Below, piece after piece: positions 871 to 62,676 of a stretch of 64,000 bases of DNA. The stretch spans positions 676,837 through 740,836 of the forward strand of contig CAWAXG010000075.1 in assembly GCA_963785755.1 (NCBI GenBank). Reading direction: 5' to 3'. Below the pieces are notes generated by a model, which saw nothing but the letters and a program-made list of their open reading frames with translations, was not told where the DNA came from and searched no databases. Position 1 is the first letter of the stretch. Each line of letters opens with the position of its first letter. The translations under genes and the position numbers were made by a program. This DNA is from an uncultured Acidobacteriota bacterium. Its GTDB lineage: Bacteria; Acidobacteriota; Vicinamibacteria; Vicinamibacterales; 2-12-FULL-66-21.

Positions 871-966
871 GACAACTCCCAACTTCCAACCTCCAACTCC
901 CAAGGAGCTCAGAGCCGATCGACCAAGAGTTTTTTGGGAGTTGGAAGTTGGAGGTTGGAAGTTGAC
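871..966. repeat. Family A simple-word hairpin element, copy A1
   Basis: Left arm caactcccaacttccaacctccaactcccaa (873-903) and right arm ttgggagttggaagttggaggttggaagttg (934-964) are imperfect reverse complements around a ~30-nt loop. Ends in GTTGAC. Fills the SDR-FAH intergenic gap. Confidence 0.85.
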
Positions 967-10162: not shown

Positions 10163-10208
10163 CGTCCTCCTCGAATTGGATCTATGAACCGCCGTCACCT
10201 TCGAATCG

Positions 10209-10272
10209 TGAACTCCGAACCATTTGAACACCGAACTCTTGAAGCCATGAACCTTGAACACCTTGAACCGAC
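10209..10272. repeat. Family B simple-word element, copy B1 (right arm only)
   Basis: Tandem TGAAC words (tgaactcc gaaccatt tgaacacc gaactct tgaagcca tgaacct tgaacacct tgaaccgac). Ends with the family terminus TGAACCGAC directly abutting the stop codon of the next gene. Confidence 0.75.
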
Positions 10273-11650: not shown

Positions 11651-11743
11651 GGCAACTCCCAACCTCCAACTCTCAACGCCCAAAGGCGCCGTGCGCCTTG
11701 GTTCGGATGCCTTGGGGGTGGAAGTTGGAAGTTGGTGGTTGAC
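11651..11743. repeat. Family A simple-word hairpin element, copy A2
   Basis: caactcccaacctccaactctcaacgcccaa ... ttgggggtggaagttggaagttggtggttgac. Fills the gap between the dehydrogenase stop (11755) and the Gfo start (11637). Confidence 0.85.
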
Positions 11744-17799: not shown

Positions 17800-18897
17800 T
17801 CAGAATCCACGAACGCGGACCCAGAAGCTCTCTTCCCAGGTGCCCCCCGGAGGCACGCTCTGGAGGTCTTTGTAGAGCCCCTTGTGGGCGAGGTTCATTG
17901 CATTCGTGATGCCGACCATCGGCTCGAAGCAGATGTAGTTCCGGTCGCCCGCCCCCTGCCCAGCTCCGGCGCCCGTTCCGGGCTTCGGCTTCGGAGCGTA
18001 AATCACCATCGCACGGTAATTTGGGCCCAAAACCACGTCGAGCTCCTGCGCCTTTCCTTTCAGCGTCATCACCGCCCGGCCGGACCCGTCGCGGGCCAGA
18101 TCGCCAAACACGTGATCCAGGTCGTAGTCCTTCAACGGAATGACTTTCGGATCCGGAAAGAAGGATTCGATCGGCTGGGTTTCCCCGGTCGGCAGGTGGT
18201 TCGCGTCGAGCAGCCAGTGGCTCTTCGCCCCCACCGAAATCGTCCAGTCGTCGCGCATCGAGTCGGTCAGCTGAAAGTACGGATGGAACCCGATCGCGAC
18301 CGGCATCGGGTCCGTGCTCAGGTTGTCGATTCGCGTCGTCACCTGCATCACGCCGTCCTTCAGCGTGTAGGTCATGTCAATCGTGTGGGCAAACGGGAAC
18401 TGTTTGATCCACAGCGGGATTGCGATAGAACTCGAGCCGGCTCGTCGTCCGGGCAGACGTCGCGTCCGCCTTCACGTCCACGACTTTCCACTGGTTGTTG
18501 AAGGTCAGCAGGCCGTGAATCGGGATCTTCCCCCTGACGTTCCCCAGGGTCATGTCGAACTCGTAGCGCTTGCCGTTGGCGTAGAACGCCTGCTCGTCGA
18601 GCCGGTTCGCCCACGGTGCGAGAAAGGGATTGCCGTTGAAGCCGGGGCGCGTCTTGAACTCCTCGATCGAGGCATACGGCCACCGGAGGACGTTGTGCCC
18701 TTTCACCTTCATCTCGAACGCGAGGTTGCCGACCGACGGCAGGATCGAGATCGTCGTCTGATACTTCGAGTCGTGCAGCTCGACGACGTCGCCGGTCTGC
18801 TTCGCGGTGTACTGTTGCGCAGCGGCCGGGGCGGCGACGATCGCGAATGCGGTCACGTCAGAACCACCACTGCGGCCCGCCGTCGTGTCTGCATCAT
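17800..18897 (-). pseudogene. Exported aldose 1-epimerase family protein; two compensating frameshifts as assembled
   Basis: ATG 18897 (MMQTRRRAAVVVL...) and the C-terminal part (17800..18375, ...GFHPYFQL...) share one frame. The middle 18377..18856 (...FLAPWANRLDEQAF...) is in another. The second junction is at a GGG/CCC run near 18413-18418 (RLEFYRNP | LWIKQFPFAHTIDMTYTL). Confidence 0.7.
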
Positions 18898-19754: not shown

Positions 19755-20086
19755 CCGCTTCCGCACTTTCGTTCGCGCCGGCTCGAGCCTTCGTCGCGTC
19801 GCCAAGACACCGCATCCTCGGACCGGCGGGCGGACACTGTCAAGACGAATATCGAAGCGGGCGGGCGGTAATCGCCCGGCGAGCGGAAACCGCACAACGA
19901 ACGCGTCACCGCCCGCGCACTCACAATTGCGGTGTCCGGACTGACAAATCCGCCACGTTCCCTGCCGAACGCCTTTGTAAGTACCGGTCCCCGCAGCAGT
20001 TGCTGACGCCTCCGTCCGGCGCGGGATGTGCAGGCACTGCTGAGCCACCCAGCAAATCACGGCCGTCGTGCTCCCGAGGTAAACCC

Positions 20087-22601
20087 ATGTTCCCTCGCAC
20101 TCGCCGTCTGCTCGTGGTCATCGGCGTTCTGATCGGTCAGCCCGCGCTGCACGCCTGGTCCCCGTCACTGATGGGTGACCGCGTCGAGTGGGCTGCGGCC
20201 GGCGCGGCCCAGAGCTGCTCCTACAGTCTGTCCGCCACCAGTGCCTCAGTGTCTTCGACCGGAACCACCGCCGGCTCGCTGTCGGTCGTCACCGGCACCA
20301 ACTGTTCCTGGACCTCGGTCAGCCACGACGCGTGGATCACGGTGACAGGTGGCGCGAGCGGAACGGGAATCGGTCAAGTCGCGTACAGCGTCGCCGCGAA
20401 CACGACCGGCGGCCAGCGCGTCGGCACCATGACGATCGCCGGCATGACCTACACGGTGACCCAGAGCGCGACCGGCTGCACGGTCAACCTCTCCGCGACC
20501 AGCGCCTCGGTCCCCTCGACCGGCAGCACCGCGGGCGCGTTGTCCGTCGTCACGGGCACGAGCTGTTCATGGACGGCGGTCAGCAACGCCGCCTGGATCA
20601 CCGTCACGAACGGCGCCAGCGGAACGGGAATCGGTCAGGTCGCGTACACCGTTGCGGCGAACACGACCGGCAGCCAGCGCGTCGGCACCATGACCATCGC
20701 CGGGCAGACCTTCACGGTCACCCAGAGCGGAAGCAGTTGCACGTACAGCCTCTCGGCGACGAGCGCCGCCGTGCCTTCGACCGGCAGCTCCGCCGGCGCG
20801 TTGTCCATCGTCAGCGGCACCAGCTGTTCATGGACGGCGGTCAGCAACGCCGCCTGGATCACCGTCACGAACGGCGCGAGCGGATCCGGAATCGGTCAGG
20901 TCGCGTACACCGTCGCCGCGAACACGACCGGCAGTCAGCGCGTCGGCACCATGACCATCGCCGGGCAGACCTTCACGGTCACCCAGAGCGGAGCCAGTTG
21001 CACCTACAGCCTCTCGGCGACGAGCGCCGCCGTGCCTTCGACCGGCAGCACCGCCGGCGCGTTGTCCATCGTCAGCGGCACCAGCTGTTCATGGACGGCG
21101 GTCAGCAACGCCGCCTGGATCACGGTCACAACGGCGCGAGCGGATCCGGAATCGGTCAGGTCGCGTACACCGTGGCCGCGAACACGACGGGCAGTCAGCG
21201 CGTCGGCACCATGACGATCGCCGGGCAGACCTACACGGTCACCCAGGCCGCCGCCAGTTGCACCTACAGCCTCTCGGCAACGAGCGCCTCCGTGCCTTCG
21301 ACCGGCAGCACCGCCGGCGCGTTGTCCATCGTCACGGGCACGAGCTGTTATGGACGGCCGTCAGCAACGCCGCCTGGATCACGGTCACCAACGGCGCGAG
21401 CGGATCCGGAATCGGTCAGGTCGCGTACACCGTGGCCGCGAACACGACGGGCAGTCAGCGCGTCGGCACCATGACGATCGCCGGGCAGACCTACACGGTC
21501 ACCCAGGCCGCCGCCAGTTGCACCTACAGCCTCTCGGCAACGAGCGCCTCCGTGCCTTCGACCGGCAGCACCGCGGGATCGTTGTCCGTCGTCACGGGCA
21601 CGAGCTGTTCATGGACCGCCGTCAGCAACGCCGCCTGGATCACGGTCACCAACGGCGCGAGCGGATCCGGAATCGGTCAGGTCTCGTACACCGTCGCGGC
21701 GAACACGACCAGCAGCCAGCGAGTCGGGACCATGGCGGTCGCCGGAATTGGGTTCACCGTGACCCAGGCCGCCGCCAGCTGTTCGTACAGCCTCTCCGCA
21801 ACCAGCGCCTCCGTCCCGTCGACCGGCAGCACGGCCGGAGCGGCATCCGTCGTCACGGGCACGAGCTGTTTCTGGAACGCCTTCAGCAGCGCTGCGTGGA
21901 TCACGGTGACGAGCGGCGCGAGCGGAACGGGAATCGGTCAGGTCGCGTACAGCGTTGCGGCGAATACGACCGGCGGTCAGCGCATCGGCACGATGACGAT
22001 CGCGGGGATCACGTTCACCGTTACGCAGGCCGCCGCCAGCTGCACCTACAGCCTCTCGGCAACGAGCGCCTCCGTGCCCTCGACCGGCAGCACCGCGGGC
22101 GCGTTGTCCGTGGTCACGGGCACGAGCTGTTCATGGACAGCCGTCAGCAACGCCGGCTGGATCACGGTCACCAACGGCGCGAGCGGATCCGGAATCGGTC
22201 AGGTCGCGTACACCGTAGCGGCGAATACGACGAGCAGTCAGCGGGTCGGCACCATGACGATCGCCGGGCAGACCTTCACAGTCACCCAGAGTGGAAGCAG
22301 TTGCACGTATAGCCTCTCGGCGACGAGCGCCTCGGTGCCGTCGACCGGCAGCACCGCGGGCGCGCTGTCCGTCGTCACCGGCACGAGCTGTTCGTGGACC
22401 GCGGTCAGCAACGCCGCCTGGATCACGGTCACCAACGGCGCGAGCGGATCCGGAATCGGTCAGGTCGCGTACACCGTAGCGGCGAATACGACGAGCAGTC
22501 AGCGGGTCGGCACCATGACGATCGCCGGGCAGACCTTCACAGTCACCCAGGCCGGCTCGACAACACTCAGCGCGCCGACGGGCCTTCGCGTCGTCAAGTG
22601 A
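20087..22601 (+). pseudogene. Secreted protein of nine tandem BACON-like domains; two 1-nt deletions as assembled
   Basis: ATG 20087 gives signal MFPRTRRLLVVIGVLIGQPALHA. The repeat unit is ~87 aa: SC(T/S)YSLSATSA.VPSTGS.AG.LS.V.GTSCSWTAVSNAAWITVTNGASG.GIGQVAYTVAANTT.SQRVGTMTIAGQTFTVTQ. The frame changes at 21129 (caccaacgg read as cacaacgg) and 21349 (ctgttcatgg read as ctgttatgg), splitting it into ORFs 20000..21214, 20188..21474 and 21258..22601. Confidence 0.75.
20213..22550 (+). repeat. 9 x ~261-bp tandem coding repeat
   Basis: The period is visible directly (e.g. 20741 vs 21001). Runs of about 180 nt are identical between units (21131-21314 vs 21391-21574). Confidence 0.9.
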
Positions 22602-25318: not shown

Positions 25319-25554
25319 CGTCGGTTCAAATGTTCAAGGGTTCAGGAGTTCAGAGGTTCGGGTTCAGGGATTCAACAGTTCGGGTTCAACAGTTCGAGCG
25401 TTCAAGGTTCAGCGATCTCGCCGCTGATCTCTCGAATCTTGGACATCTGAACCTGAACCCCTGAACCCCGAAGCCTTGAACCTGAACATCTGACCCCCCG
25501 AACCCTTGAACCCGAACCTCTGAACCCTTGAACTCTTGAACCATTGAACCGACG
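25319..25554. repeat. Family B simple-word palindrome, copy B2
   Basis: CGTCGGTTCA + ~12 GTTCR words (25319-25411), a 34-nt loop, ~13 TGAAC words, then TGAACCGACG (25446-25554). The outer ~45 nt of the arms are well complementary. Fills the gap between the FadB-like stop (25569) and the ligase start (25304). Confidence 0.9.
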
Positions 25555-32627: not shown

Positions 32628-32797
32628 CGTCGGTTCAAAGGTTCAGGAGTTCAAGCGGTTCGGGTTCAGGGGTTCAGCGGTTCAAGGGTTCGACAGGGTT
32701 CAGAGGTTCAACCTCCCGCGCGAACTCTCGAACGACTGAACCTGAACCTCTGAACCCGAACCCGTGAACGCCTGAACTGCTGAACGCTTGAACCGAC
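32628..32797. repeat. Family B simple-word palindrome, copy B3
   Basis: CGTCGGTTCA + ~10 GTTCR words, loop cctcccgcgcgaactctcgaacgac, then TGAAC words ending TGAACCGAC. Fills the gap between the pcaF stop (32802) and the MetE-like start. Confidence 0.9.
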
Positions 32798-34030: not shown

Positions 34031-34296
34031 CGTCGGTTCAGTAGTTCAAGGGTTCAAGGGTTCACGGGTTCGGGTTCAGAGGTTCAAAGGTTCGATTCAG
34101 CGTTCAAAGGTTCAAAGGTTCGATGCGGTTGCTCGAGCGACCGCGCGCCAGCGAGCGCGGCTGAGTTCCAGTTGAACATTTGAACCACGGACGCCGAACC
34201 TGAACTCTTGAACCTTGGAACTCTTGAACTCTTGAACCTTGAACCTTGAACCCTTGAACCCTTGAACCCTTGAACCCCTGAACCTTTGAACCGACG
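34031..34296. repeat. Family B simple-word palindrome, copy B4 (largest)
   Basis: CGTCGGTTCA + ~11 GTTCR words (to ~34125), a 45-nt GC loop with its own small stem (ccgcgc...gcgcgg), then ~14 TGAAC words ending TGAACCGACG. Occupies most of the divergent region between pcaF (start 34013) and the cytochrome c gene (start 34347). Confidence 0.9.
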
Positions 34297-37195: not shown

Positions 37196-37356
37196 GTCAA
37201 CTTCCAACTCCCAATCTCCAACTCCCAACTTCCAAAGCGAATGGCTCGTAGCATTGGGGTGAAAATCGCAGCGATCTACCCGATTGCACCGGCTTTCACC
37301 CAGGCGAGTTCCGGCGACTCGCTTTGGGAGTTGGAGATCGGGAGTTGGGAGTTGAC
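37196..37356. repeat. Family A simple-word hairpin element, copy A5
   Basis: gtcaacttccaactcccaatctccaactcccaacttccaaagcga (37196-37240), a 77-nt loop, then tcgctttgggagttggagatcgggagttgggagttgac (37318-37356). The arms differ by one hexamer unit. Ends 13 nt before ATG 37369. Confidence 0.9.
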
Positions 37357-38193: not shown

Positions 38194-39056
38194 CCGCCGG
38201 ACCGCGTGAGATCCCGCAGATTCCGGCCGCAGATCGTGCTGGCCTCGAACTTGTCCCCCTTGGGACCGGTCCAGTGCGTCTCCAGGCTGATCCAGCCCTT
38301 GTAGCCATCGCGCTCGAGCGCGCTGATCTGCCCTTTCCAGTCGATCCCCATCTCACCGACCGGGCCCCAGGTCGGCTTGAAATCCTTCACGTAACAGTCC
38401 TTGGCGTGCACGTGGACGATCTGATCCGCGGGGAGCATCGCGTACCCCTCGGGGAACGGTTTCTCTCCGAGGATCGACGCGTTCGCCGGATCCCAGAGGA
38501 TCTTGACGGCCGGATGCCGGAAGCTGGCGAACAGCTTCGCCGTTTCGCCCGCGGTCGCCACATTGCACGCGTGCTCGTTCTCGAGGGCAATGACGACGCC
38601 GCGCTTCGCGGCTTCGTCACCGAGCGCCTGAAGCGCGGCCGCGACGCGGTCGTAGGTGCGCTCCGGCTCGACGGTCCGCCAGTACCAGAACACGCGGATG
38701 ATCCGCGCGCCGGCCCGCTCGGCGACTTCGAACGCCCGCTGCGTGAGCCGCGGCTGATCCTCGTAGGTATGAGCCGAGCCGAACACGTCGTGCTGGACGC
38801 GGCTGTCCAGCGCCGGAGCATCCGGCAGCACACACTTCAGGAGCGGTGAGGCCAGCGAGACGACTTCCATGCCGTGGGCTTTGACCGCCGCGCGCACGCG
38901 ATCGACTTCGTCATCGCTCAGATCGATCATGTTCCGGCCGAACGCGACCCGCAGTTCCGCGCCGGTCATGCCGACATCCGCCATGCCCTTGAGAGCCGAC
39001 TCGAGATCGTTCGGCGAGAATTCGTCGGTGATGGCCGCGATGGGATAGACGCTCAT
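38181..39056 (-). CDS. Sugar phosphate isomerase/epimerase (xylose isomerase-like TIM barrel)
   Basis: 291 aa from ATG 39056 (ATGA overlap with the MFS stop). ...VIALENEH..., ...HVHAKD..., ...WISLETH. Its 3' end overlaps the convergent gene by 13 nt. Confidence 0.8.
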   Translation of the reverse strand: MSVYPIAAITDEFSPNDLESALKGMADVGMTGAELRVAFGRNMIDLSDDEVDRVRAAVKAHGMEVVSLASPLLKCVLPDAPALDSRVQHDVFGSAHTYEDQPRLTQRAFEVAERAGARIIRVFWYWRTVEPERTYDRVAAALQALGDEAAKRGVVIALENEHACNVATAGETAKLFASFRHPAVKILWDPANASILGEKPFPEGYAMLPADQIVHVHAKDCYVKDFKPTWGPVGEMGIDWKGQISALERDGYKGWISLETHWTGPKGDKFEASTICGRNLRDLTRSGGQSK

Positions 39057-40393
39057 TCGGGAAGTGGCTTTCCTTTGGTTTCCGGCGCAAAGGGCACCGT
39101 CGCAAGACCGATCAGGAACACGAGACACATCGTGACGCCGGCATAGCGCATCGGCTCGGGATAGCCGGCATACACACGGCTGGTCAGCAGGCCGAGCGCC
39201 AGCGGCCCGATCGCAGCGACGAACCGGCCGACGTTGTAGCAGAACGAGGTGCCGGTGCTGCGCAGGCGCGTCGGGAACAATTCCGGCAGATAGATCGCGT
39301 AGCCGCCGAACAGCGCCAGCTGGCAGAAGCCCATCATCGGAATCATCCAGAAGATGTCGCTGAAGGTGTTGAGGTTCCAGAACGTGTAGGCCGTCGAGAA
39401 CATCGCCGCGACGAAGGCGATGGCAAACGCCTTCCTGCGGCCGATCTTCTGCGTCACGTGCGTGAACACGTAGATCCCGAAGAACGCCCCGAGGTTCTGC
39501 AGCAACGAGACCATGCCGATCCAGAACGTGACCTGTCCGGGCGACAGGTTCGATCGTTCCAGCACCGTCCGGAACAGGTCGAAGCTGAAGAAGCCGATGC
39601 CCCACAAGCCGACGACGCCGGCGAACGCCAGCAGCATGCCGATGATCGCGTTGTAGCGCCAGCGCGGATCCGAGAACAGCTCCGTCATCGAGCCGCGGCG
39701 CGCCCCGGCCTTGGCTTCGCGCTGCCACCGCTCCGGCTCCTTCAACTTCTTGAACACCACGATGCAGAGCAGCGCCGGGAGCGAGCCGACGAGAAACATC
39801 GCGCGCCAGGCGCTGTCGATCACGCCCGCCGACTGCATCGAGCCCAGGATGATCCCGACGGTGGCGGCCATCATGTTGCCGACCGCCGACGACGCCTGGA
39901 GCCAGCCGAGCGCGTAGGGCCGCGCCCGATCGGGCAATGACTCGGCGACGAGCGCAACGCCGACCGCGAACTGCCCGCCGACACCGAGTCCGGTCAGGAA
40001 CCGGTAGAACGCGAAGTCCCACACGCCGACGGAGAAGACGCTCAGCCCCGTGAACATCGAATACAGCAGGATGGTGTAGACCATCGTCCGCGCGCGGCCG
40101 ATGCGATCGCCGAGAATCCCGAAATAGACGCCGCCGGTCGCCCAGCCGATGATGAAAATCGTCGTGGCGTAGCCGGCGTACTCGGCGATGTTGGCCGGCG
40201 TCGCGCCGGGCCCCAGCAGCTCGGCAATCGCGGGTCTCCTCGCGAGATTGAAGAGCTGCTGATCCATCGTGTCGAACAGCCAGCCGAGCGACGCGACCAC
40301 GAGGACGAACCAGTGGCCCCGATTGAGCTCGCGATACCAGGGCCCGGACACCTGCGCGGCGGGGGCGGAGACGGAATTGGTCGGATGCATCAT
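39053..40393 (-). CDS. MFS transporter (sugar-type, in rhamnose operon)
   Basis: 446 aa, 12 predicted hydrophobic segments, loop motif GDRIGRAR. The start overlaps the rhaM stop (ATGA). Confidence 0.85.
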   Translation of the reverse strand: MMHPTNSVSAPAAQVSGPWYRELNRGHWFVLVVASLGWLFDTMDQQLFNLARRPAIAELLGPGATPANIAEYAGYATTIFIIGWATGGVYFGILGDRIGRARTMVYTILLYSMFTGLSVFSVGVWDFAFYRFLTGLGVGGQFAVGVALVAESLPDRARPYALGWLQASSAVGNMMAATVGIILGSMQSAGVIDSAWRAMFLVGSLPALLCIVVFKKLKEPERWQREAKAGARRGSMTELFSDPRWRYNAIIGMLLAFAGVVGLWGIGFFSFDLFRTVLERSNLSPGQVTFWIGMVSLLQNLGAFFGIYVFTHVTQKIGRRKAFAIAFVAAMFSTAYTFWNLNTFSDIFWMIPMMGFCQLALFGGYAIYLPELFPTRLRSTGTSFCYNVGRFVAAIGPLALGLLTSRVYAGYPEPMRYAGVTMCLVFLIGLATVPFAPETKGKPLPE

Positions 40394-40725
40394 CGGCGAT
40401 CGGGATCCGGTTTATCGAGATGGAAGACTTCGTCGAGCGTGCGGCTGAGCGGCCGGCCGTCGTCGGTCGACGGCATCACGTCACGCATGTGGCGCCACCA
40501 GCGCTGGCAGACCTCGGTCGCCGCGACCGCCTCCCAGCGCTCCTGGGTGTCGAACTCCACGTAAGCGAATAGATCGTTGGTGTCGCGGTCGATGAAGATC
40601 GAATAGTTCTGCACGCCATGGGCCTGCAGCGTGTCGGCCAGCTCCTGCCAGATCGGCTGATGGCGACGGACGTACTCGTCCTGCTGGCCGGGATGGACCG
40701 ACATTCGGAAGGCACGCCTGATCAC
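40390..40725 (-). CDS. rhaM: L-rhamnose mutarotase
   Basis: 111 aa from GTG 40725 (GTGA overlap with the rhaI stop). (V)[28 protein letters not shown]...[18 protein letters not shown]...VCQRWWRHM is colinear with YiiL/RhaM. Confidence 0.85.
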
Positions 40726-41993
40726 GACCGCCCGGCGAGGACCTGTTCCTCGTACGTCCTGATTTCCTGCAGCCAGGCGGCGCCCGGCGGGACGTTCGAC
40801 CATTCGCAGTAGCGATCCCAGACGGCGCCGAACGGCAGGGTCTTGGTTTCTTCCAGGAGCGCCAGACGGCCGGTGTAATCGCCCGCCGCTTCGAGCGTGC
40901 GCAGCGTGTCCGCGGGTTCGAGCAGCGCCTTGAGCAGCGACTTGATCATGTTCCTGGTGCCTATCGTCCACGCGGCGACCCGGTTGATGCTCGCGTCGAA
41001 ATAGTCGAGCCCGATGTGCACACGCTCGAGGAAGTTGCCACGGACGAGCTCCTGACCGATCGCCTCGAGATCGTCGTTGAGGACGACGACGTGGTCGCTG
41101 TCCCAGCGGACGCCCCGGCTCACATGGAGCATGATCTCCGGCAGGAACGAAAGAATCGAGCTGATCTTGTCGGTGACCGTTTCGGTCGGGTGGTAATGCC
41201 CGGAATCGAGCGTGAGCAGTTTGCCACGCGAGAGCGCGTAGCCGTAATAGAACTCGTGCGACCCCACCGTATAGCTTTCGCAGCCGATGCCGAACAGCTT
41301 GCCCTCGACCGAGTCGCGATTGCAGGCCGGATCGATGTGCTCGTCGAAGATGGCGTCGAGCGCGCTGACCAGCCGCTCGCGCGGCTGCACGCGGTCGATC
41401 GGCGTGTCCTTCATGCCGTCGGGGATCCAGAAGTTCGTCAGGCAGGGCGTGTTGAGCGTCTTGCCGATGATCGCGCCGATCCGGCGGCAGGCGATGCCGT
41501 GCGCAATCCAGAACTCGCGGATCGCGTTGTCGGCGTGCGACAGCGTGAAGTTGTCGGCCGCGTTCGGATGCGAGAAGAACGTGGGGTTGAAATCCAGCCC
41601 GATGCGGAGGTGCCTGGCCCAGTCGATCCAGCCGGCAAAGTGTTCGGGACCGATCTGGTCGCGGTCGACCATGCGGCCGCCGAATTCGCCATAACTGGCG
41701 TGCAGGTTGAACCGGTGGGTGCCGGGAATCAGCGACAGCGCTTTCTCGGCATCGGCGCGCAACTCGTCCGGCGTCCGTGCCTTGCCGGGATAGTTGCCGG
41801 TCGCGGCCAGACCGCCGCCGAGCCCGGTGCCGAACCGCTCGAATCCGCCGACGTCATCTCCCTGCCAGCAATGGAGCGAGACGGACACCTCGGCCAGCCG
41901 CTTCAACGCCGCATCGGCGTTGACCCCCAGCTCGGCGTATCGTTCCTTCGCGATGTCATAGGCTCGTTCGGTTGAATGGCTTGGCATGGTCAC
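40722..41993 (-). CDS. rhaI: L-rhamnose isomerase (Pseudomonas stutzeri / rhizobial RhaI type, TIM barrel)
   Basis: 423 aa. N-terminus ...[41 protein letters not shown] is typical of this isomerase family. Followed by rhaM. Confidence 0.75.
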
Positions 41994-42039
41994 GTCCTCG
42001 CGGCCGGTTCACGGCGCCTCAGCATATCGCAAAGCTAAT

Positions 42040-42170
42040 CTCTCTCCCCCCGGGGGACTTCGTCCCCCGGACCCCCTTACACGCTCGCTCGCGGGGGCCC
42101 CCATGCCCCGCTCCGCTCTCGTGGCTCGCTCGCTTCGCTCACTCGCGACCGTCCGCGAGTCAGTCGGGTG
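42040..42170. repeat. CTCGCT/GAGCGA-word spacer with short GC hairpins (element E)
   Basis: 9-bp stem ccgggggac/gtcccccgg with a 3-nt loop (42050-42070). Then acgctcgctcgcggg...ccgctccgctctcgtggctcgctcgcttcgctcactcgcg, with further small stems (actcgcg/cgcgagt). Lies between the esterase stop (42174) and the rhaI start (41993). Confidence 0.6.
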
Positions 42171-42173
42171 CTC

Positions 42174-42824
42174 TCAGCTTAGAAGCCCCCGCACGGCCTC
42201 GATCTCGTCGTCGACCACCGTGTGCCCCATCTGCTCGTAGATGCGCTCGTCCACTCGCGCGTTCATCCGGCGGAACACCTCCGCCGTCTCGTGCACACGC
42301 TCCAGCGGAATGTGCGAATCGACGTCGCTGCAGCCCAGGAAAACCGGCGTTCCGGCAAGCGAACCCGGGTAGTCACGGGGGGTTCCTGGAGGCCCGATCA
42401 GGCCGCCGCTCAGGCCGGCGATTGCCGCATAGCGCCGCGGATGACGGGCGGCGAATTCGAGAGACAGGCACGCCCCCTGCGAAAAGCCGACGAACCCGAC
42501 ACGGTCATGTGCGATCCCCTCAGCCGCGAGCCTGGCGACCAGCTTCTCGAGGACGCCCAGCGCCGACGACAGGTACGGTTCGTTCCTCTCGATTGGAGTC
42601 AGGAACGAATACGGGTACCAGCTGTGCGCCGCTGCCTGCGGCGCCACATACGCGACATCCTTCAATCGGAACTCGCGTGCCAGGCCCAGAATATCCTCGG
42701 CCGACGCGCCCCGGCCGTGAACCAGGACAACCGTCAGCCTCGCATCCGCCGGTTGTGGACCATCGGTCAAGACCAGCTGTCCGGCATGGGGGTCGGGACT
42801 CGTGTGTGTCATGAGTGGCGTCAT
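42174..42824 (-). CDS. Phospholipase/carboxylesterase family alpha/beta hydrolase
   Basis: 216 aa from ATG 42824 (or 42812). VVLVHGRGASAEDI, nucleophile elbow GFSQGA, C-terminal ...MGHTV. Confidence 0.75.
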   Translation of the reverse strand: MTPLMTHTSPDPHAGQLVLTDGPQPADARLTVVLVHGRGASAEDILGLAREFRLKDVAYVAPQAAAHSWYPYSFLTPIERNEPYLSSALGVLEKLVARLAAEGIAHDRVGFVGFSQGACLSLEFAARHPRRYAAIAGLSGGLIGPPGTPRDYPGSLAGTPVFLGCSDVDSHIPLERVHETAEVFRRMNARVDERIYEQMGHTVVDDEIEAVRGLLS

Positions 42825-42840
42825 CGACAAGGCGGAGCGG

Positions 42841-43161
42841 TCAGCCCGCCTCACGTTCGAACGTGAGGTACAGCGGACCGGCTCCGAGAAGACCGAGCAA
42901 GGAAAACGTGCCGACCCCGGGCCGGTTGATCGCAATGAAGCGTGCGTGCTCGCCGGGACGGAGATCGAGGTCCAACGTCTTCCAGAACAGCGTGTTGTGA
43001 GCGCGAATGCGATGCTCGCCGGGAGTGACGTCGCGGGTCACGGTGTCTCCGAACAGCAGCGTGCCGAACGACTCGCCGTCGAGCGACACCACGATCTGAC
43101 GATCCCTCACGTCCTTCGGATGCCGGCGAGTCACGGTGACCCGGGCGCTCGGGTTATCCAC
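42841..43161 (-). CDS. Hypothetical protein
   Basis: 106-aa ORF with coding-like composition and a C-terminal hydrophobic segment (GVGTFSLLGLLGAGPLYL). No family recognised. Confidence 0.45.
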   Translation of the reverse strand: MDNPSARVTVTRRHPKDVRDRQIVVSLDGESFGTLLFGDTVTRDVTPGEHRIRAHNTLFWKTLDLDLRPGEHARFIAINRPGVGTFSLLGLLGAGPLYLTFEREAG

Positions 43162-43252
43162 GAGTCAATTGTATCGGGCGCGCTGCGCCGCTTGCGACTG
43201 TGACAAGCTGCAGGTAGCAGGGCGCAAGGAACAAAGAGGGAGATCGGCGGAC

Positions 43253-43258
43253 TATAAT
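43253..43258 (+). promoter_or_regulatory. Candidate -10 box (TATAAT)
   Basis: A perfect TATAAT in a GC-rich context, 19 nt upstream of ATG 43278. No convincing -35 or Shine-Dalgarno. Confidence 0.25.
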
Positions 43259-43277
43259 CCGGCGGGCTTCGGGCCAC

Positions 43278-44693
43278 ATGCATTCGCAGCGCGCTGATCG
43301 ATCGATGAGGTGGATCACCACCGCCGTGGAAGTGGCTGCCCTCGCGACCATCCTTTGTTCGGCAGCTTGTGCGTCCGCACCCCCGGCGCGAAGTGGGGCC
43401 ACGGACGAATTCGCTATCGGTGTCGCGGCCGTCGACATCACTCCCGATGAACCGATCCGCCTGACCGGGTATGGCAATCGGACGACCCCGACTGGTGAGG
43501 TGCGTCAGCGTCTGCGCGCGAAGGCTCTCGCGTTCGGCGCCGACGGTCAGCAGCCATCCGTCCTCATCACCACCGACTTGATCGGCTTGCCGATGAGTCT
43601 CACCGACGCGGTCGCGCGGCGGCTGGCGCCGGCGAAGATCGAACGGGCACGGTTGGCGATCACGGCAACGCACACGCATACCGGGCCGAGCATCGCGGGT
43701 GTGCTTCCGCACATCTTTGCCTCGCCGCTCACGCCAGACGAGACGAAGGCGATCGAACGCTACACGACGGACCTCACCGAGAAGCTGACACGCGTTGCCT
43801 CTGCGGCGCTCGCGGATCGGCGCCCGGCACGGCTCGCATTCGGTCAGGGGACGGCGCGATTCGCCGCGAACCGGCGGGTCCTGAAGGACGGCAAGTGGAC
43901 CGCGTTCGGCATCGAGGCGGCCGGACCGGTCGATCACGACCTGCCGGTGCTGGCGGTGCGGGCGCCGGATGGCGTCCTGCGCGCGGTGCTCGTCAACTAC
44001 GCGTGCCACGCGACCACTTTCGGCGGCAACGACAATTTCATTCACGGCGACTGGCCAGGATCGGTCCAGGCCCTGATCGAGGAGCAGCACCCGCAGGCGA
44101 TCGCGCTGGTGACGGTCGGGGCCGGCGCGGATGCGAACCCGAACCCGCGCAGCGCCGGCCTCCAGGATGTCGAGCGTCACGCACGCGAGATCGCCGATGA
44201 AGTGAAGCGGCTGCTCGGGACGCCGATGACACGGATCACGGCGCCGCCAGCAGGCCGATTCCGAGCGGTGGAGATCGCGTTCGACCGAGTCCCCAGCCGT
44301 CAGGAGTGGGAAGCGCAGACGTCGAGAAACGATGCGATAGGGCATCACGCTCGCGCCGTGCTCGCGCGTCTCGACAAGGGCGAGGCGATCCCGTCGACCG
44401 CGCCGTACCCGGTTCAAACCTGGACGTTCAGCAACGAACTGGCGATGGTGTTTCTCGGCGGCGAAGTCGTGTCGGATTATTCGCTGCGCCTCAAACGCGA
44501 GCTCGACGGCGCCAGGCTCTGGGTCACGGCCTACGCGAATGACGTCCCGTTCTATGTCGCGTCGCGGCGGATGATTCCGGAAGGCGGATACGAGGTCGAC
44601 CGTTCGATGACCTACTATGGGCAGCCAGCTCCACTTGCCGCGGACACGGAGGAACGAATCGTGACCGCGGTGCGGGAGCTGTTGGGGAGATGA
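43278..44693 (+). CDS. Exported neutral/alkaline ceramidase-like N-terminal domain protein
   Basis: 471 aa with a signal-like N-terminus. FAIGVAAVDITPDEPIRLTGYGNR...RAKALAF...LITTDLIGLP fits the ceramidase N-domain family. Assignment is moderate. Confidence 0.55.
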   Translation: MHSQRADRSMRWITTAVEVAALATILCSAACASAPPARSGATDEFAIGVAAVDITPDEPIRLTGYGNRTTPTGEVRQRLRAKALAFGADGQQPSVLITTDLIGLPMSLTDAVARRLAPAKIERARLAITATHTHTGPSIAGVLPHIFASPLTPDETKAIERYTTDLTEKLTRVASAALADRRPARLAFGQGTARFAANRRVLKDGKWTAFGIEAAGPVDHDLPVLAVRAPDGVLRAVLVNYACHATTFGGNDNFIHGDWPGSVQALIEEQHPQAIALVTVGAGADANPNPRSAGLQDVERHAREIADEVKRLLGTPMTRITAPPAGRFRAVEIAFDRVPSRQEWEAQTSRNDAIGHHARAVLARLDKGEAIPSTAPYPVQTWTFSNELAMVFLGGEVVSDYSLRLKRELDGARLWVTAYANDVPFYVASRRMIPEGGYEVDRSMTYYGQPAPLAADTEERIVTAVRELLGR

Positions 44694-44895
44694 GCCACGT
44701 GCAACGTGCCACGGGCTACGTGCGCACGTGCTGTCGTGCCACGCTGCCACGTGCGCACGTGCATTTTGTGCGCACGTGCATTTTGTGCTCACGTGCTTAC
44801 GTGCTTGTGCTCACGTGCTTTGTGCCCGTCGCACGTAGCACGCAGGACGTAGCACGAAAAGCACGTGAGCACTCAGCGCGTGGCACGCGGCACGT
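44694..44895. repeat. Family C simple-word palindrome (ACGTGC / CACGTG words), copy C1
   Basis: About 15 GTGC-words at ~8-nt spacing (44694-44830), then an opposed GCAC-word arm (44831-44895) ending in TTTT on the plus strand. Fills the whole convergent gap 44694-44898. Confidence 0.85.
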
Positions 44896-44898
44896 TTT

Positions 44899-45474
44899 CT
44901 ACTTCTCCGCGGGCGGACAGCTGCCTGACGCCTCACGCACCGAGACGACCTCGAACTCCTTCAGGTTGAGGTCCTGTCCCGCCGGATCGACCTTGCCACC
45001 CGGCGTTGCGGGTTGAGCGGCCGCCCCTTCGGCGGAATCCTTGATCTTTCCGACGATCTCCACCTTCTTACCCACGTGCTGCTCGGCCTGACCCTCGCCG
45101 GGTCCCGTCAATTCATAGGCCTCGCCAGCGGCGCCGCTCGTGCCGACGGCTTCTGGTGTCGCGGGTCTTTCGGCTGACGCCGTGGCGCCCGTCGAAACGG
45201 TCGCGTTCACGAGGACGAACTCATTGGCCGCCCCTGCGCCGGTCCCGGCCGCGCCTCCGGCGCCTGCACTCTTCGCGCGGCGGTAATCCGCTTCGCGCTG
45301 CACGCACCCGACGATCGTCATCTGCGGCTGAGCCGCGGCGGGCGCTGGCTCTTGCGCGGCGGGCGCACCGCCCGCGGGCGGCGCAGTAGGCTGCTGTGTC
45401 GCCTGCGCGAACACAGCCATACTCATGGCCAGCACAGCTGCTGAACACGTCGCGCCTGTAATCAATCGGTTCAT
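44899..45474 (-). CDS. Exported Ala/Gly/Pro-rich hypothetical protein
   Basis: 191 aa from ATG 45474. Signal MNRLITGATCSAAVLAMSMAVFAQA, low-complexity middle, structured C-terminus (KKVEIVGKIKD...LNLKEFEVVSV). Confidence 0.55.
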   Translation of the reverse strand: MNRLITGATCSAAVLAMSMAVFAQATQQPTAPPAGGAPAAQEPAPAAAQPQMTIVGCVQREADYRRAKSAGAGGAAGTGAGAANEFVLVNATVSTGATASAERPATPEAVGTSGAAGEAYELTGPGEGQAEQHVGKKVEIVGKIKDSAEGAAAQPATPGGKVDPAGQDLNLKEFEVVSVREASGSCPPAEK

Positions 45475-45572
45475 CGGTGCTACTCCTTCACCTGCAGAGT
45501 GATTCGCATAGCACCTTCCTGCAATGCTCAGACCGCTTTCGCGATTGAGGATGCGGTCGTCCCCCGCAGCCG

Positions 45573-46979
45573 TCACTGCGGCGCGAGACGCGGGGCCGGG
45601 CGGGGCGGGCTCTGCCGGCTCATCTCGGTGCCTCTCGTGGTGATGGAGTACTTCGCGAGCATGTTGGGACGCTCCCACGCGGGCATCGCGCGGCGGTCCC
45701 GCAGGAACTTGAAGTAGTTCGCGGCCACTTCGGCGAAGTGCGCCTCGTGGCCGACGCGGAACGCGTCGGGAATGGCGACGTGGATGTCGGCGCCGCGATC
45801 GTGCACGGCAATCCCCGGATACCGGCCCTGCAGCGCCTTGACTCTCGCGTTGACGGCTGCCAGCACCTCGGCTTTCATCGTGGCCTCGACTGGGACGACG
45901 TACAGCTCCGGCCGGAATCGATCGGCGCGGGTCTGACGCACGTCGATGCGGGCGCGCGAGCCGCGATAGAACGCGAAGTGTGAATCGCCCGAACCTGGCG
46001 ACGCTTCCCAGTCCCAGATCACGTTCAACTTCGTGTGGATCCCGCGCACGGCGTACGAGACGAGCGTGTTGCAGTAGTACTCGAGCGTGCCCCCCTTCAC
46101 CGATCCGGCGATGCTGGCCGGGAAGCCAGGTTCACCGGTGACGCGCCGAAAATCGGTTTCCGGAATCTTCGTCGGCCAGCGCTGGGCGCCGGTGATCTCG
46201 ATGTCGGCCCGATAGTCGAGCGCCTGCTCGGGAAAGAGCGTCCACTGGACCAGATCGACCAGGTGCGTGCCGACGTCGTTCAGCCCTTCGGTCTCGGCCG
46301 CATCGAAGAACCAGGCCGGCCTGATATTGGGCGCGCCCGCCACCGTCTTCATCAAGTAATGGACGCTCTCCATGTAGACGGCAGGGTCGTCCGGCGTTCC
46401 TCGCACGATCGAGCCGAACGTCGCGGGATCGTTCACGAGCTCGCGCTGCAGGATGGACGTGATTTCGAAACGCTCGGTCATGATGTCGTATGCGACGACG
46501 CCCTTCGCATCAGCGTCCGCCAGCGCCGCATCGAGCTTCTCGAGATCCGCGGAGGCCAGGATCCACGGCTTGTCGGCGAGGACGTTCAACCCGCCGGCCA
46601 CGGACGAGACGATGCGCTCGATCTTGGGGCGATTCCGGCCCGACAGCACGACGACGTTGCCCGGCCGTTCGCGGAGCATGCGCTCGAAGAAATCAGGACC
46701 CGTGTGCACCTCGACCTGCCACGACGTCGGCCGCTCGCCGCGGGTGTTGAAGGACGACACCCGCTTCAGGTGCTCGAGCAGATCCGGACCGAGCGGCGCG
46801 TAGACGTCCACGCGAGGCGCCACGTCCGGATACATTTCCTTTTGAATCAGCGCGGCGTGGAAATGTCCCGGGTCCGCGGTCATCAGCCGCACGCTCGGTG
46901 CCGCGCGTCCGCTCTGGCCCGTCACCGCCGCACCTGCGAGCACGATGGCCGCCAGCGCCACGATCGTCTTGATCTGCAT
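45573..46979 (-). CDS. Exported putative oxidoreductase (Gfo/Idh/MocA-related, oxidoreductase C-terminal domain family)
   Basis: 468 aa. Signal [35 protein letters not shown]... and a central LADKPW motif recall the secreted putative-oxidoreductase family. Confidence 0.55.
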
Positions 46980-47003
46980 CTCCGCCGCCTCGTCATCCGA
47001 TGT

Positions 47004-47246
47004 CTACTTTCGTTGGATCAGCACGATATCCGAATTGGGATGGTTGAGCGACGCCAGGATCTGGGCTTCGCGCTGAAAGCGTGCCAGCCGTTGGGAATCG
47101 GCGGCGAAGATATCCGGCAGCACCTTGAGCGCGACATCGCGCTGCAGCTCCAGATCGCGTGCACGGAAGACTTCTCCCATGCCGCCGCGGCCGATGGCGG
47201 CGACGACCTCATACGGTCCGAGACGCATACCGGGAGCGACACCCAT
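47004..47246 (-). pseudogene. Ser/Thr protein kinase, N-terminal ~75-aa fragment
   Basis: [37 protein letters not shown]...[15 protein letters not shown] gives a Gly-rich loop, the VAIK-type Lys and the start of helix C. It stops 10 codons later, 25 nt before the next gene. Confidence 0.65.
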
Positions 47247-47353
47247 GCCGAACGGCCGAAAAACCCGCCGATTATACGTCGCGCGACAGGCGATCATCCC
47301 CCGTGCGGCAGCGCCTTTGCGCTGAAGGTCGATCGCGCGGCGCGTGACCCGCC

Positions 47354-47359
47354 TATAAT
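47354..47359 (+). promoter_or_regulatory. Candidate -10 box (TATAAT)
   Basis: A perfect TATAAT 16 nt upstream of ATG 47376 of the hybrid kinase. No clear -35 or SD. Confidence 0.25.
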
Positions 47360-47375
47360 CAGCACAACTGCGCGT

Positions 47376-50406
<3,031 letters not shown>

Positions 50407-54770: not shown

Positions 54771-54829
54771 GGGAATCGGGACTCGGGACTGGGGCTGGTC
54801 TCGGGATCGGGGATCAGGATCGGGGAATT
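54771..54829. repeat. GGGATC/GGGACT-word tandem spacer (element D)
   Basis: gggaatc gggactc gggactg gggctggtctc gggatc ggggatcag gatc ggggaatt. About 7-nt period, one orientation only. Lies 80 nt upstream of ATG 54908. Confidence 0.7.
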
Positions 54830-60976: not shown

Positions 60977-61127
60977 CTCGCTCAGCTCCCAACTCCCGAC
61001 TCCCAAGAAGCATCAGTCGAACGAGCTGGGTGGAATACGTGACAACGAGCTCTCCGAGTACGACTTTCACCCGGCGCTGTCGAACCTCGCGCGTTGGCAG
61101 TTGGGAGTTGGGAGTGTGGGAGTTGAC
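60972..61127. repeat. Family A simple-word hairpin element, copy A6
   Basis: gtcaactcgctcagctcccaactcccgactcccaa (60972-61006), an ~87-nt loop, then ttggcagttgggagttgggagtgtgggagttgac (61094-61127). Fills the boxB-ALDH gap. The terminal GTCAAC contains the probable TTG start on the minus strand. Confidence 0.85.
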
Positions 61128-62555: not shown

Positions 62556-62556
62556 T

Positions 62557-62676
62557 CACGTGCTCCGTGCTACGTGCTGGGTGCGAACGTGCCTCGTGCT
62601 ACATGCACACGTGCGGACGTGCCGATCGTGCTACGGGCTACGTGCGGACGTGCTTTTGTGCTACGTGCTTCGTGCC
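62557..62676. repeat. Family C simple-word array, copy C2 (single orientation)
   Basis: About 13 GTGC words at ~8-nt spacing (cacgtgct ccgtgct acgtgctgg gtgcga acgtgcct cgtgct ...), directly abutting the boxB start codon. Followed by an 8-bp stem cttccggc/gccggaag (62693-62712). Confidence 0.8.

Follow-up and report, generated by a model that had tools for sequence, protein, structure and literature searches.

The short tandemly repeated repetitive (STRR) heptamers of heterocystous cyanobacteria form hairpins between genes, including the hupS-hupL pair; their function is unknown, and the proposals for it are transcript stability or a coupling of translation (PMC2670836). In this study, we compare these and other intergenic repeats with element C1, an array of ACGTGC words that occupies the entire gap between two convergent genes of an uncultured Acidobacteriota bacterium of the order Vicinamibacterales. 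C1 lies within a 64,000-nucleotide stretch of contig CAWAXG010000075.1 (assembly GCA_963785755.1, positions 676,837 to 740,836 of the forward strand), which we call the window. Vicinamibacterales rank among the most abundant bacteria in soil, and nearly all knowledge of them comes from metagenome-assembled genomes (MAGs). We show that a class of word arrays, with several word families, exists in this genome and in related genomes, and that C1 has taken the place of a small terminator-type hairpin together with the final four codons of the upstream gene. On balance, we consider it probable that C1 is a young member of this dispersed intergenic class, that its length changes by slippage, and that it acts as the 3' stem-loop of two convergent mRNAs.

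The class to which C1 belongs resembles the STRRs in its tandem units of about 7 nt, in having several word families per genome, in its intergenic positions, some of them within operons, and in its hairpins formed from opposed arrays. C1 works like an STRR; however, it is not an STRR proper, since its host is a member of the Vicinamibacterales and not a heterocystous cyanobacterium and its words differ from those of STRR1-3. The C1 class is found in Acidobacteriota and uses other, GC-rich words in units of 7-8 nt with variable spacers, whereas STRRs are strict heptamers; furthermore, in the C1 class inverted pairing with a fixed polarity is the rule for long elements, and whole gaps are filled. 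The traits of a short-unit repeat were all found in the C1 class: a tandem unit of about 7 nt, many intergenic copies from multiple families (in 64 kb), and variation in unit number.

In Xanthomonas and Nostoc, about 90% of the GGGAATC and GGGGA(T/C)T heptamers are intergenic; they lie just past the end of the upstream open reading frame (ORF), far nearer to it than to the following one, and most of the gaps concerned separate co-oriented genes (Rehm et al. 2015, PMC4692102). Neither strand is preferred, the length varies strongly among close relatives, and slippage favoured by the heptamer unit has been proposed (PMC4692102). Those heptamers, however, are G-rich, have been studied as G-quadruplex formers, and occur mostly as single direct arrays of about four units, whereas ACGTGC words can form no G-quadruplex and make duplex hairpins of up to 400 nt. 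The TAACTGA repeats of Beggiatoaceae and some cyanobacteria are intergenic direct arrays of a heptamer, with one word used genome-wide and common to distant taxa (PMC4679880). They share with the C1 class the heptamer-type direct arrays in intergenic DNA, but their copy number is 2-6, they almost always immediately precede start codons, and they point forward, being essentially never inverted.

Repetitive extragenic palindromic (REP) sequences and bacterial interspersed mosaic elements (BIMEs), tagged with GTAG or CGTC, are extragenic palindromes that mostly follow genes, in gaps flanked by unidirectional or convergent ORFs (Di Nocera et al. 2013, PMC3733652). REPs are probably transcribed, often occur as inverted dimers that form larger hairpins, and differ in presence or absence among strains (PMC3733652). 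The C1 class is likewise extragenic and mostly 3' of ORFs between unidirectional or convergent genes, and elements of its A and B families (see below) often begin with CGTC; the likeness to REPs is looser than that to the STRRs and to the Xanthomonas and Nostoc heptamers. REPs, however, have a unit of 20-40 bp, a fixed stem-loop sequence and, for the GTAG type, a RAYT transposase, whereas the C1 class has a 7-8-nt word unit and an open-ended length, C1 carries neither tag, and a scan of about 40 window proteins revealed no RAYT. Nor does C1 have the makeup of a miniature inverted-repeat transposable element (MITE): its arms are inverted, but no target-site duplication was seen at its ends, the central regions are unrelated, and no insertion sequence (IS) was found in the window.

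Our literature search found no paper on such repeats in Vicinamibacter, Luteitalea or Acidobacteria. The poorly understood heptamer and octamer intergenic repeats are now extended from cyanobacteria and xanthomonads to a third unrelated phylum, and the C1 class adds two features to them, a strict inside-out polarity of the hairpins and the replacement of native terminator hairpins.

Anatomy and history of C1

The features of C1 are as follows.
44694..44895, no strand: element C1, the entire ACGTGC-word hairpin array, filling the convergent gap 44694-44898
44697..44823, plus strand: 5' arm of C1, 15 GTGC-type words with an ACGTGC core and a period of 7-9; about twice the length of the 3' arm, with two local hairpins within
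44751..44784, plus strand: exact tandem duplication of the 17-nt unit GTGCGCACGTGCATTTT, its copy number polymorphic among strains
44824..44895, plus strand: 3' arm of C1, opposed GCAC/GCACGT words, pairing with both ends of the 5' arm
44895..44898, plus strand: TTTT run at the plus-strand end of the structure, adjoining the minus-gene stop codon CTA (44899-44901)

A preliminary description of the window, made from its letters, had reported a 205-bp gap between convergent stop codons filled by about 15 GTGC-type words, an exact repeat present twice, an opposed GCAC arm, and TTTT just before the minus-gene stop, and all of this proved accurate. The gap (44694-44898, 205 bp) is wholly occupied by C1; its 15 GTGC words, at 44699-44822, are spaced 6-9 nt apart except for two intervals of 14-15 nt, and include two exact tandem copies of the 17-nt unit GTGCGCACGTGCATTTT (44751-44784). 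The GCAC, GCACG and GCACGT words of the 3' arm lie at 44831-44890, and CACGTG occurs eight times in the element. The first letters of C1 are GCCACGTGC and the last are GCACGTTTT. The pattern ACGTGC-N1-3-ACGTGC is found six times in the window, against 0.07 expected from shuffles, and all six lie in C1 or in the array at 62556-62676; the word pattern of C1 is far beyond chance.

Both strands of C1 fold far more stably than any of 200 shuffles, none of which matched the real energy: the RNA fold is -137.6 kcal/mol on the plus strand (z -8.9) and -133.7 kcal/mol on the minus strand (z -8.6), and the DNA fold is -82.7 kcal/mol (z -8.6). The structure is branched and about 200 nt long, with an outer stem (44697-44732 with 44860-44895; 36 nt, 83% complementary), two local hairpins in the longer 5' arm, and a long inner stem (44807-44821 with 44858-44872; 15 nt, 100% complementary). 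The hairpin cluster begins 1-4 nt past each stop codon. Three terminator-like sites were predicted on the plus strand, including the closing stem followed by TTTTC. A terminator-like hairpin internal to C1 (44748-44778, followed by CATTTT) needs the 17-nt duplication. An Rfam search of the whole window gave no match at the gathering score, and a known RNA family was rejected for C1, as a permissive Rfam search gave only eukaryotic miRNA hairpins far below threshold, which are attributable to chance.

Loci outside the window, given here by handles such as L145, place C1 in time. Three of them, from other samples (L145, L146 and L147), are 99.7, 99.0 and 97.3% identical to window positions 38305-49709, and all carry C1. 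The unit GTGCGCACGTGCATTTT is present in two copies in the window and in one copy in L146 and L147, and L145 has a TTTT deletion; these 17-nt-unit and TTTT indels are the largest in the 7-11 kb aligned, the remaining differences in C1 being a few single-nucleotide polymorphisms (SNPs). The same convergent gene pair is found in L148 (80% protein identity), L149 (70%) and L011 (67%), with gaps of 44, 87 and 81 nt, each of which holds one simple hairpin and no array. The L011 hairpin leads into a minus-strand T-tract, making it a canonical terminator for the minus gene. Because C1 is found in strains of 97% identity or more and not in relatives of 80% protein identity or less, we conclude that it is young.

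The upstream, neutral-ceramidase-like gene records the replacement at its 3' end. Its product ends in ...VRELLGR* in the array-bearing lineage and in ...LAGTFAK* or ...FTRR* in array-free orthologs, and the C-terminus of the window protein is 4 residues shorter than that of every array-free ortholog. Based on these differing C-termini, it is concluded that C1 took over the ancestral spacer and four codons. The downstream gene, encoding a 191-aa secreted protein, has a C-terminus that is conserved in relatives, and its end was unchanged by C1. The preliminary description had rightly remarked that the array is far longer than a terminator needs; C1 has this excess length because it is a member of a repeat family that expands in word units. 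The L148 gap (2949-2992, 44 nt) ends in ...CCACGTTGCAC before the minus-gene stop, and the window at 44885-44898 ends in ...GGCACGTTTTC; the CACGTT beside the stop, common to both, might conceivably have been the seed of the ACGTGC array.

Word arrays in the window and in related genomes

In the 64 kb of the window, Tandem Repeats Finder and a k-mer cluster scan detected about 11 arrays built of 7-8-nt words, all intergenic and belonging to at least four word families: A (CAACTCC ... GGAGTTG), B (GGTTCAAG ... CTTGAACC), C (ACGTGC) and D (GTCCCGA). Most consist of a word array followed by its inverted array. The fold energy is about -0.5 kcal/mol per nt. As a whole, the arrays account for 2.5% of the window and, on a crude gene map, for at least about 15% of its noncoding DNA. 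The arrays other than C1 are as follows.
872..966, no strand: A1, CAACTCC ... GGAGTTG word hairpin between SDR and FAA-hydrolase genes
10185..10270, no strand: B4, single arm of TGAAC words, with the end TGAACCGAC
11652..11738, no strand: A2, A-family word array
25321..25553, no strand: B1, GGTTCA(A/G)G ... CTTGAACC word hairpin between co-directional minus-strand FadB-like and acyl-CoA ligase genes
32630..32797, no strand: B2, B-family word hairpin with the termini CGTCGGTTCA ... TGAACCGAC
34033..34295, no strand: B3, B-family hairpin between the divergent genes for a thiolase (minus strand, start 34013) and a cytochrome c (plus strand, start 34347)
37196..37356, no strand: A3, A-family word array between two co-directional genes
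54771..54826, no strand: D, short GGGACTC/TCGGGA array (GTCCCGA words)
60984..61127, no strand: A4, A-family word array between boxB-like and aldehyde dehydrogenase genes
62556..62676, plus strand: C2, one-directional ACGTGC array of about 16 words, filling most of the gap from the boxC-like stop to the boxB-like start of the minus strand

All of these arrays lie between genes, in gaps that are convergent (C1), co-directional or divergent (B3). The co-directional sites include the boxC-boxB-aldehyde dehydrogenase genes and the FadB/acyl-CoA-ligase pair (beta-oxidation genes), which are likely operons. The final word of C2 reads GGAGCACGTGA-ATG, placing a Shine-Dalgarno-like GGAG 7 nt before the boxB-like ATG. 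The right-arm words of the B hairpins hold TTGAAC, which is like a -35 box and points outward, and B3 fills a divergent promoter gap. The A hairpins often start with (GA)CGTCAAC and end with GTTGACG; A3 and A4 each have a second inner hairpin of the form GGGTGAAA...TTTCACCC.

Like C1, the sister arrays vary between relatives. In L006, the syntenic site lacks A3 and the gap measures about 37 nt. The L001 contig is 99.5% identical to the window, and 9 of the 58 differences between the two fall in A4; D differs from L001 7801-7856 by exactly one 7-nt word.

For the flanking gene, the best relatives come from Vicinamibacterales/Acidobacteriota MAGs at 58-69% identity, and several of their loci carry word arrays, some with the words of the window and some with others: CCCAACT-type words in L004, L005, L006 and L012, GCACGT in L011 and GGGATTC in L014. 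The genomes behind L004-L006, L011, L012, L014 and the window are array rich, and those behind L002, L003 and L007 are array poor. The same word families are present in different genera, as with the A words in L004, L005, L006 and L012, and word arrays were virtually absent from the nonacidobacterial loci fetched with the same query. In L006 (11327-11630), CCAACTC-type words followed by about 15 GGTCGCC words lie directly 3' of the ceramidase-like ortholog; therefore, the same gene end has gained arrays of different words in different lineages.

A wider search for ACGTGC arrays, which the preliminary description had suggested, was productive both in the window, where it yielded C2, and in metagenome contigs scanned with a four-word ACGTGC pattern, where arrays were found in at least 120 stretches. 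About half of the matches listed lie on GC-rich contigs (GC of at least 0.6), and the contigs are unrelated. The word statistics cover the GC-rich contigs among the matches listed (87 arrays, 881 words). The predominant periods are 7 (n = 246) and 8 (n = 369), and the conserved core is ACGTGC, with A at 82%, C at 81% and GTGC as the anchor. CACGTG is completed by a C in 31% of words, and the same position holds G in 40%, T in 21% and A in 8%; CACGTG, to which the preliminary description had assigned many of the words, is therefore frequent in C1 but is not the conserved unit of the family. B and C arrays occur together on three further contigs. On crude gene calls, array sides fall within 20 nt of gene 3' ends about 20 times, against about 6 times for 5' ends, and the one-directional arrays follow no rule with respect to the orientation of the adjacent gene (8 against 8). 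One such array, at L011 16269-16373 (ACGTGC/GCACGT words), stands directly before a start codon and ends in a small hairpin with TATAAT.

Viral contigs gave nine matches, mostly perfect one-directional octamer arrays in unrelated, often low-GC contigs; arrays of the TGACGTGC or GCACGTAT type, with up to 14 copies, are found at L151 7331-7440, L153 1722-1767 and L158 10679-10764. Octamer microsatellites with an ACGT core are therefore not confined to Acidobacteria, and such words can arise independently; the viral arrays say nothing about mobility. The degenerate block ACGGGCTACGTG recurs in C1, C2, L011 and L094, with an identity of 20 nt between C1 and L011; we judged this to be compatible with chance given 881 words and made no use of it.

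Contigs often end inside arrays, as do L001 (position 1, equal to window 62627), L030, L032, L052, L074, L078 and L100, which indicates that the arrays are assembly breakpoints in short-read assemblies of these organisms. Repeats that fill gaps in this way break assemblies, mislead gene callers, because ORFs run into the arrays, and complicate the prediction of terminators, promoters and small RNAs.

Origin and function of the arrays

In the account that we favour, C1 is a tandem array of 7-8-nt words joined to an inverted array, producing a long imperfect palindrome of a class dispersed in Vicinamibacterales. The arrays would grow and shrink by slipped-strand mispairing, and the elements of one family may be related by copying, as their fixed polarity and shared termini suggest. 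Once transcribed, C1 most likely acts as a large 3' stem-loop cluster for the two convergent mRNAs that would stop RNA polymerase, through the plus-strand hairpin and short U run, and/or block 3' exonucleases, like the hairpin that it replaced. Such a terminator or 3'-protection function would be a consequence of the landing site and not the reason for the class. We read C1 as a 3' structure because it replaced a terminator-type hairpin, starts 1-4 nt past the stop codons and ends in a plus-strand U run, and because hairpin clusters without U tracts can terminate (PMC8355165). C1 shares with intrinsic and hairpin-cluster terminators a GC-rich hairpin cluster a few nucleotides past the stop, a short plus-strand U run and the position of the orthologs' hairpin; unlike intrinsic terminators, it is about 200 nt long (against 20-60 nt), lacks a minus-strand U tract, consists of repeated words, and has kin at nonterminator positions. 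If the elements act as RNA 3' structures, they would provide ready-made strain variation in terminator strength.

Several observations weigh against this account. What points to termination or 3'-end protection at C1 is its position, and the U run is short (4 U) and confined to the plus strand; no terminator-like site was found on the minus strand of C1. Strong termination cannot define the class, because probable operons and a divergent promoter gap also harbour sister arrays. When the strain SNPs of C1 were mapped on the minimum free energy structure, they were mostly pair weakening and none was compensatory, although the SNPs are too few to count as a test against the structure. In eight elements of known gene orientation, comparison of sense and antisense fold energies and G-U counts revealed no consistent bias, and hairpin arrays whose sense strand gains nothing in energy or G-U pairs do not demonstrate RNA-level selection. 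The fixed polarity of the hairpins (10 of 10) and the return of the same words in different genera are both left unexplained by slippage alone. Finally, some of the 1-nt differences between assemblies may be long-read errors, as the window has split ORFs.

The polarity bears most directly on origin. Hairpin-type C elements read as a CGTGC run followed by a GCACG run in 10 of 10 independent cases on unrelated contigs and never in reverse, the L053 and L047 hairpins agree by eye, and the B hairpins (four of four) and all A hairpins are equally polar. This suggests either that the elements of a family are copies of one another, spread in the manner of REPs or MITEs, or that some protein recognizes the direction of the arms with respect to the dyad; given that no sense-strand bias was seen, neither duplex thermodynamics nor strand-specific RNA selection explains it. 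It is conceivable, if unlikely, that C1 is a nonautonomous REP- or MITE-like element, inserted whole by a transposase or recombinase that recognizes the palindromic arms, with the word number drifting later. This explanation overlaps the one that we favour, the difference being an origin by transposition and not by growth in situ. Besides polarity, it would account for the shared termini: every C hairpin starts with CACGTGC and ends with GCACGT, and B elements have the termini CGTCGGTTCA ... TGAACCGAC(G), 9-mers that are confined to B ends in the 64 kb (GTCGGTTCA is found in the window only at three B left ends and TGAACCGAC only at four B right ends). It also fits the presence and absence at syntenic sites (A3 versus L006; C1 versus L148, L149 and L011), the word families common to different genera, and the CGTC with which B1-B3 and some A elements begin, as in CGTC-tagged REPs (PMC3733652). 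However, no target-site duplication was found at the ends of C1, L047, L048, L053, L068, L073 or B1-B3, and the copies have no conserved interior, their interiors and loops being unrelated and their sizes spanning 60 to about 400 nt. C1 stands in place of the ancestral spacer and four codons and was not added to them, many arrays are one-directional, and no transposase (RAYT included) or IS element was present among the approximately 40 window proteins scanned against Pfam. The perfect TGACGTGC-type arrays of unrelated viral contigs also tell against it, since they indicate that words can arise independently. An ungapped register test of mirror-image arms gave 0.95 versus 0.63 for L005 and 0.65 versus 0.48 for C1, with some others being homogeneous arrays in which register is irrelevant; limited as it is by indels, this result is suggestive and not decisive. 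At L047 4421-4560, a short C-type hairpin stands between the complementary flanks CCTTTCGAT ... ATCGAAGG, as though its words had arisen by growth or insertion within the loop of an older hairpin.

If the elements were copied and not grown in place, a mobilizing activity would be implied. We tentatively extend this into a proposal that is possible but still doubtful, namely that the polar word-array palindromes are a multifamily Vicinamibacterales system (ACGTGC, GGTTCAAG, CAACTCC and others), copied from site to site by a structure- or sequence-specific enzyme that keeps orientation and termini, with the arms then expanding by slippage to the neighbouring genes. If this is true, the system would be a new REP-like genome parasite or architectural element and not a set of passive microsatellites, and its elements would supplant native terminators, interrupt operons and promoter gaps, and form a sizeable share of the intergenic DNA.

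The preliminary description had also pointed to CACGTG arrays as dimer-binding sites. An array of sites for a sequence-specific, probably dimeric protein, either a regulator or a nucleoid-associated coat, would explain why the ACGTGC core, with its palindromic ACGT, is well conserved over many genomes, why the arms keep a polarity relative to the dyad, which could reflect oriented binding, and why some arrays, such as C2 and L011 16269-16373 (with TATAAT beside it), stand directly upstream of genes. We nevertheless find this improbable, and that suggestion is not supported by the family as a whole: the core is ACGTGC, CACGTG is complete in only 31% of words, and the period is 7-8 bp and not the helical 10-11. 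C1 lies between two stop codons in a gap where no promoter-like site was found, its word number is polymorphic among near-identical strains, and one-directional arrays point either way equally often with respect to the neighbouring genes (8 against 8). Furthermore, at least three other, unrelated word families share the period, the inverted architecture and the gap filling; therefore, a separate protein would be needed for each. There is similarly little likelihood that C1 is a purpose-built bidirectional terminator or insulator, selected against the collision of convergent transcription. The terminator suggested in the preliminary description is plausible at C1 itself, which lies in a convergent gap, is extremely stable on both strands, has a plus-strand U run and stands in place of the relatives' simple hairpin, and hairpin clusters can terminate (PMC8355165); its bidirectional form finds no terminator-like site on the minus strand. 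Against purposeful design, relatives manage with 44-87 nt, elements of the same kind lie inside probable operons and in a promoter gap, the internal hairpin at 44748-44778 with its CATTTT depends on a duplication that two strains lack, and there are no compensatory substitutions. An assembly artefact or chance low-complexity sequence can practically be dismissed. Repeats do break assemblies, contigs such as L001 end inside arrays, and the split ORFs hint at indel errors; however, C1 is near identical in four independent assemblies (JGI and ENA samples), by which an artefact is effectively refuted, and its statistics are far beyond chance.

Flanking genes and other features of the window

The genes on either side of C1 are as follows.
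43305..44693, plus strand: upstream convergent gene, neutral-ceramidase-like (PF04734), 462 aa in public assemblies; stop codon TGA at 44691-44693
44899..45474, minus strand: downstream convergent gene, 191-aa secreted protein; stop codon CTA at 44899-44901; called independently in four public assemblies

The 191-aa protein matched no Pfam family. In an exact-protein look-up, neither the window ORF (ATG 43278) nor P0001 had a match, and the cluster members P0128, P0131 and P0121 were matched.

Two other regions of the window contain interrupted reading frames. The aldose 1-epimerase gene is split at 17800-18856 into ORFs 17800-18375 and 18377-18856 by a frameshift that is either real or a long-read indel error, a point that bears on the reading of single-base differences within arrays. 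At 20216-22554, nine tandem copies of a 261-nt unit (88% identity) encode BACON-domain repeats; their frame is interrupted and falls into two or more overlapping ORFs (20000-21214 and 21258-22601), as a result of either a pseudogene or an assembly frameshift.

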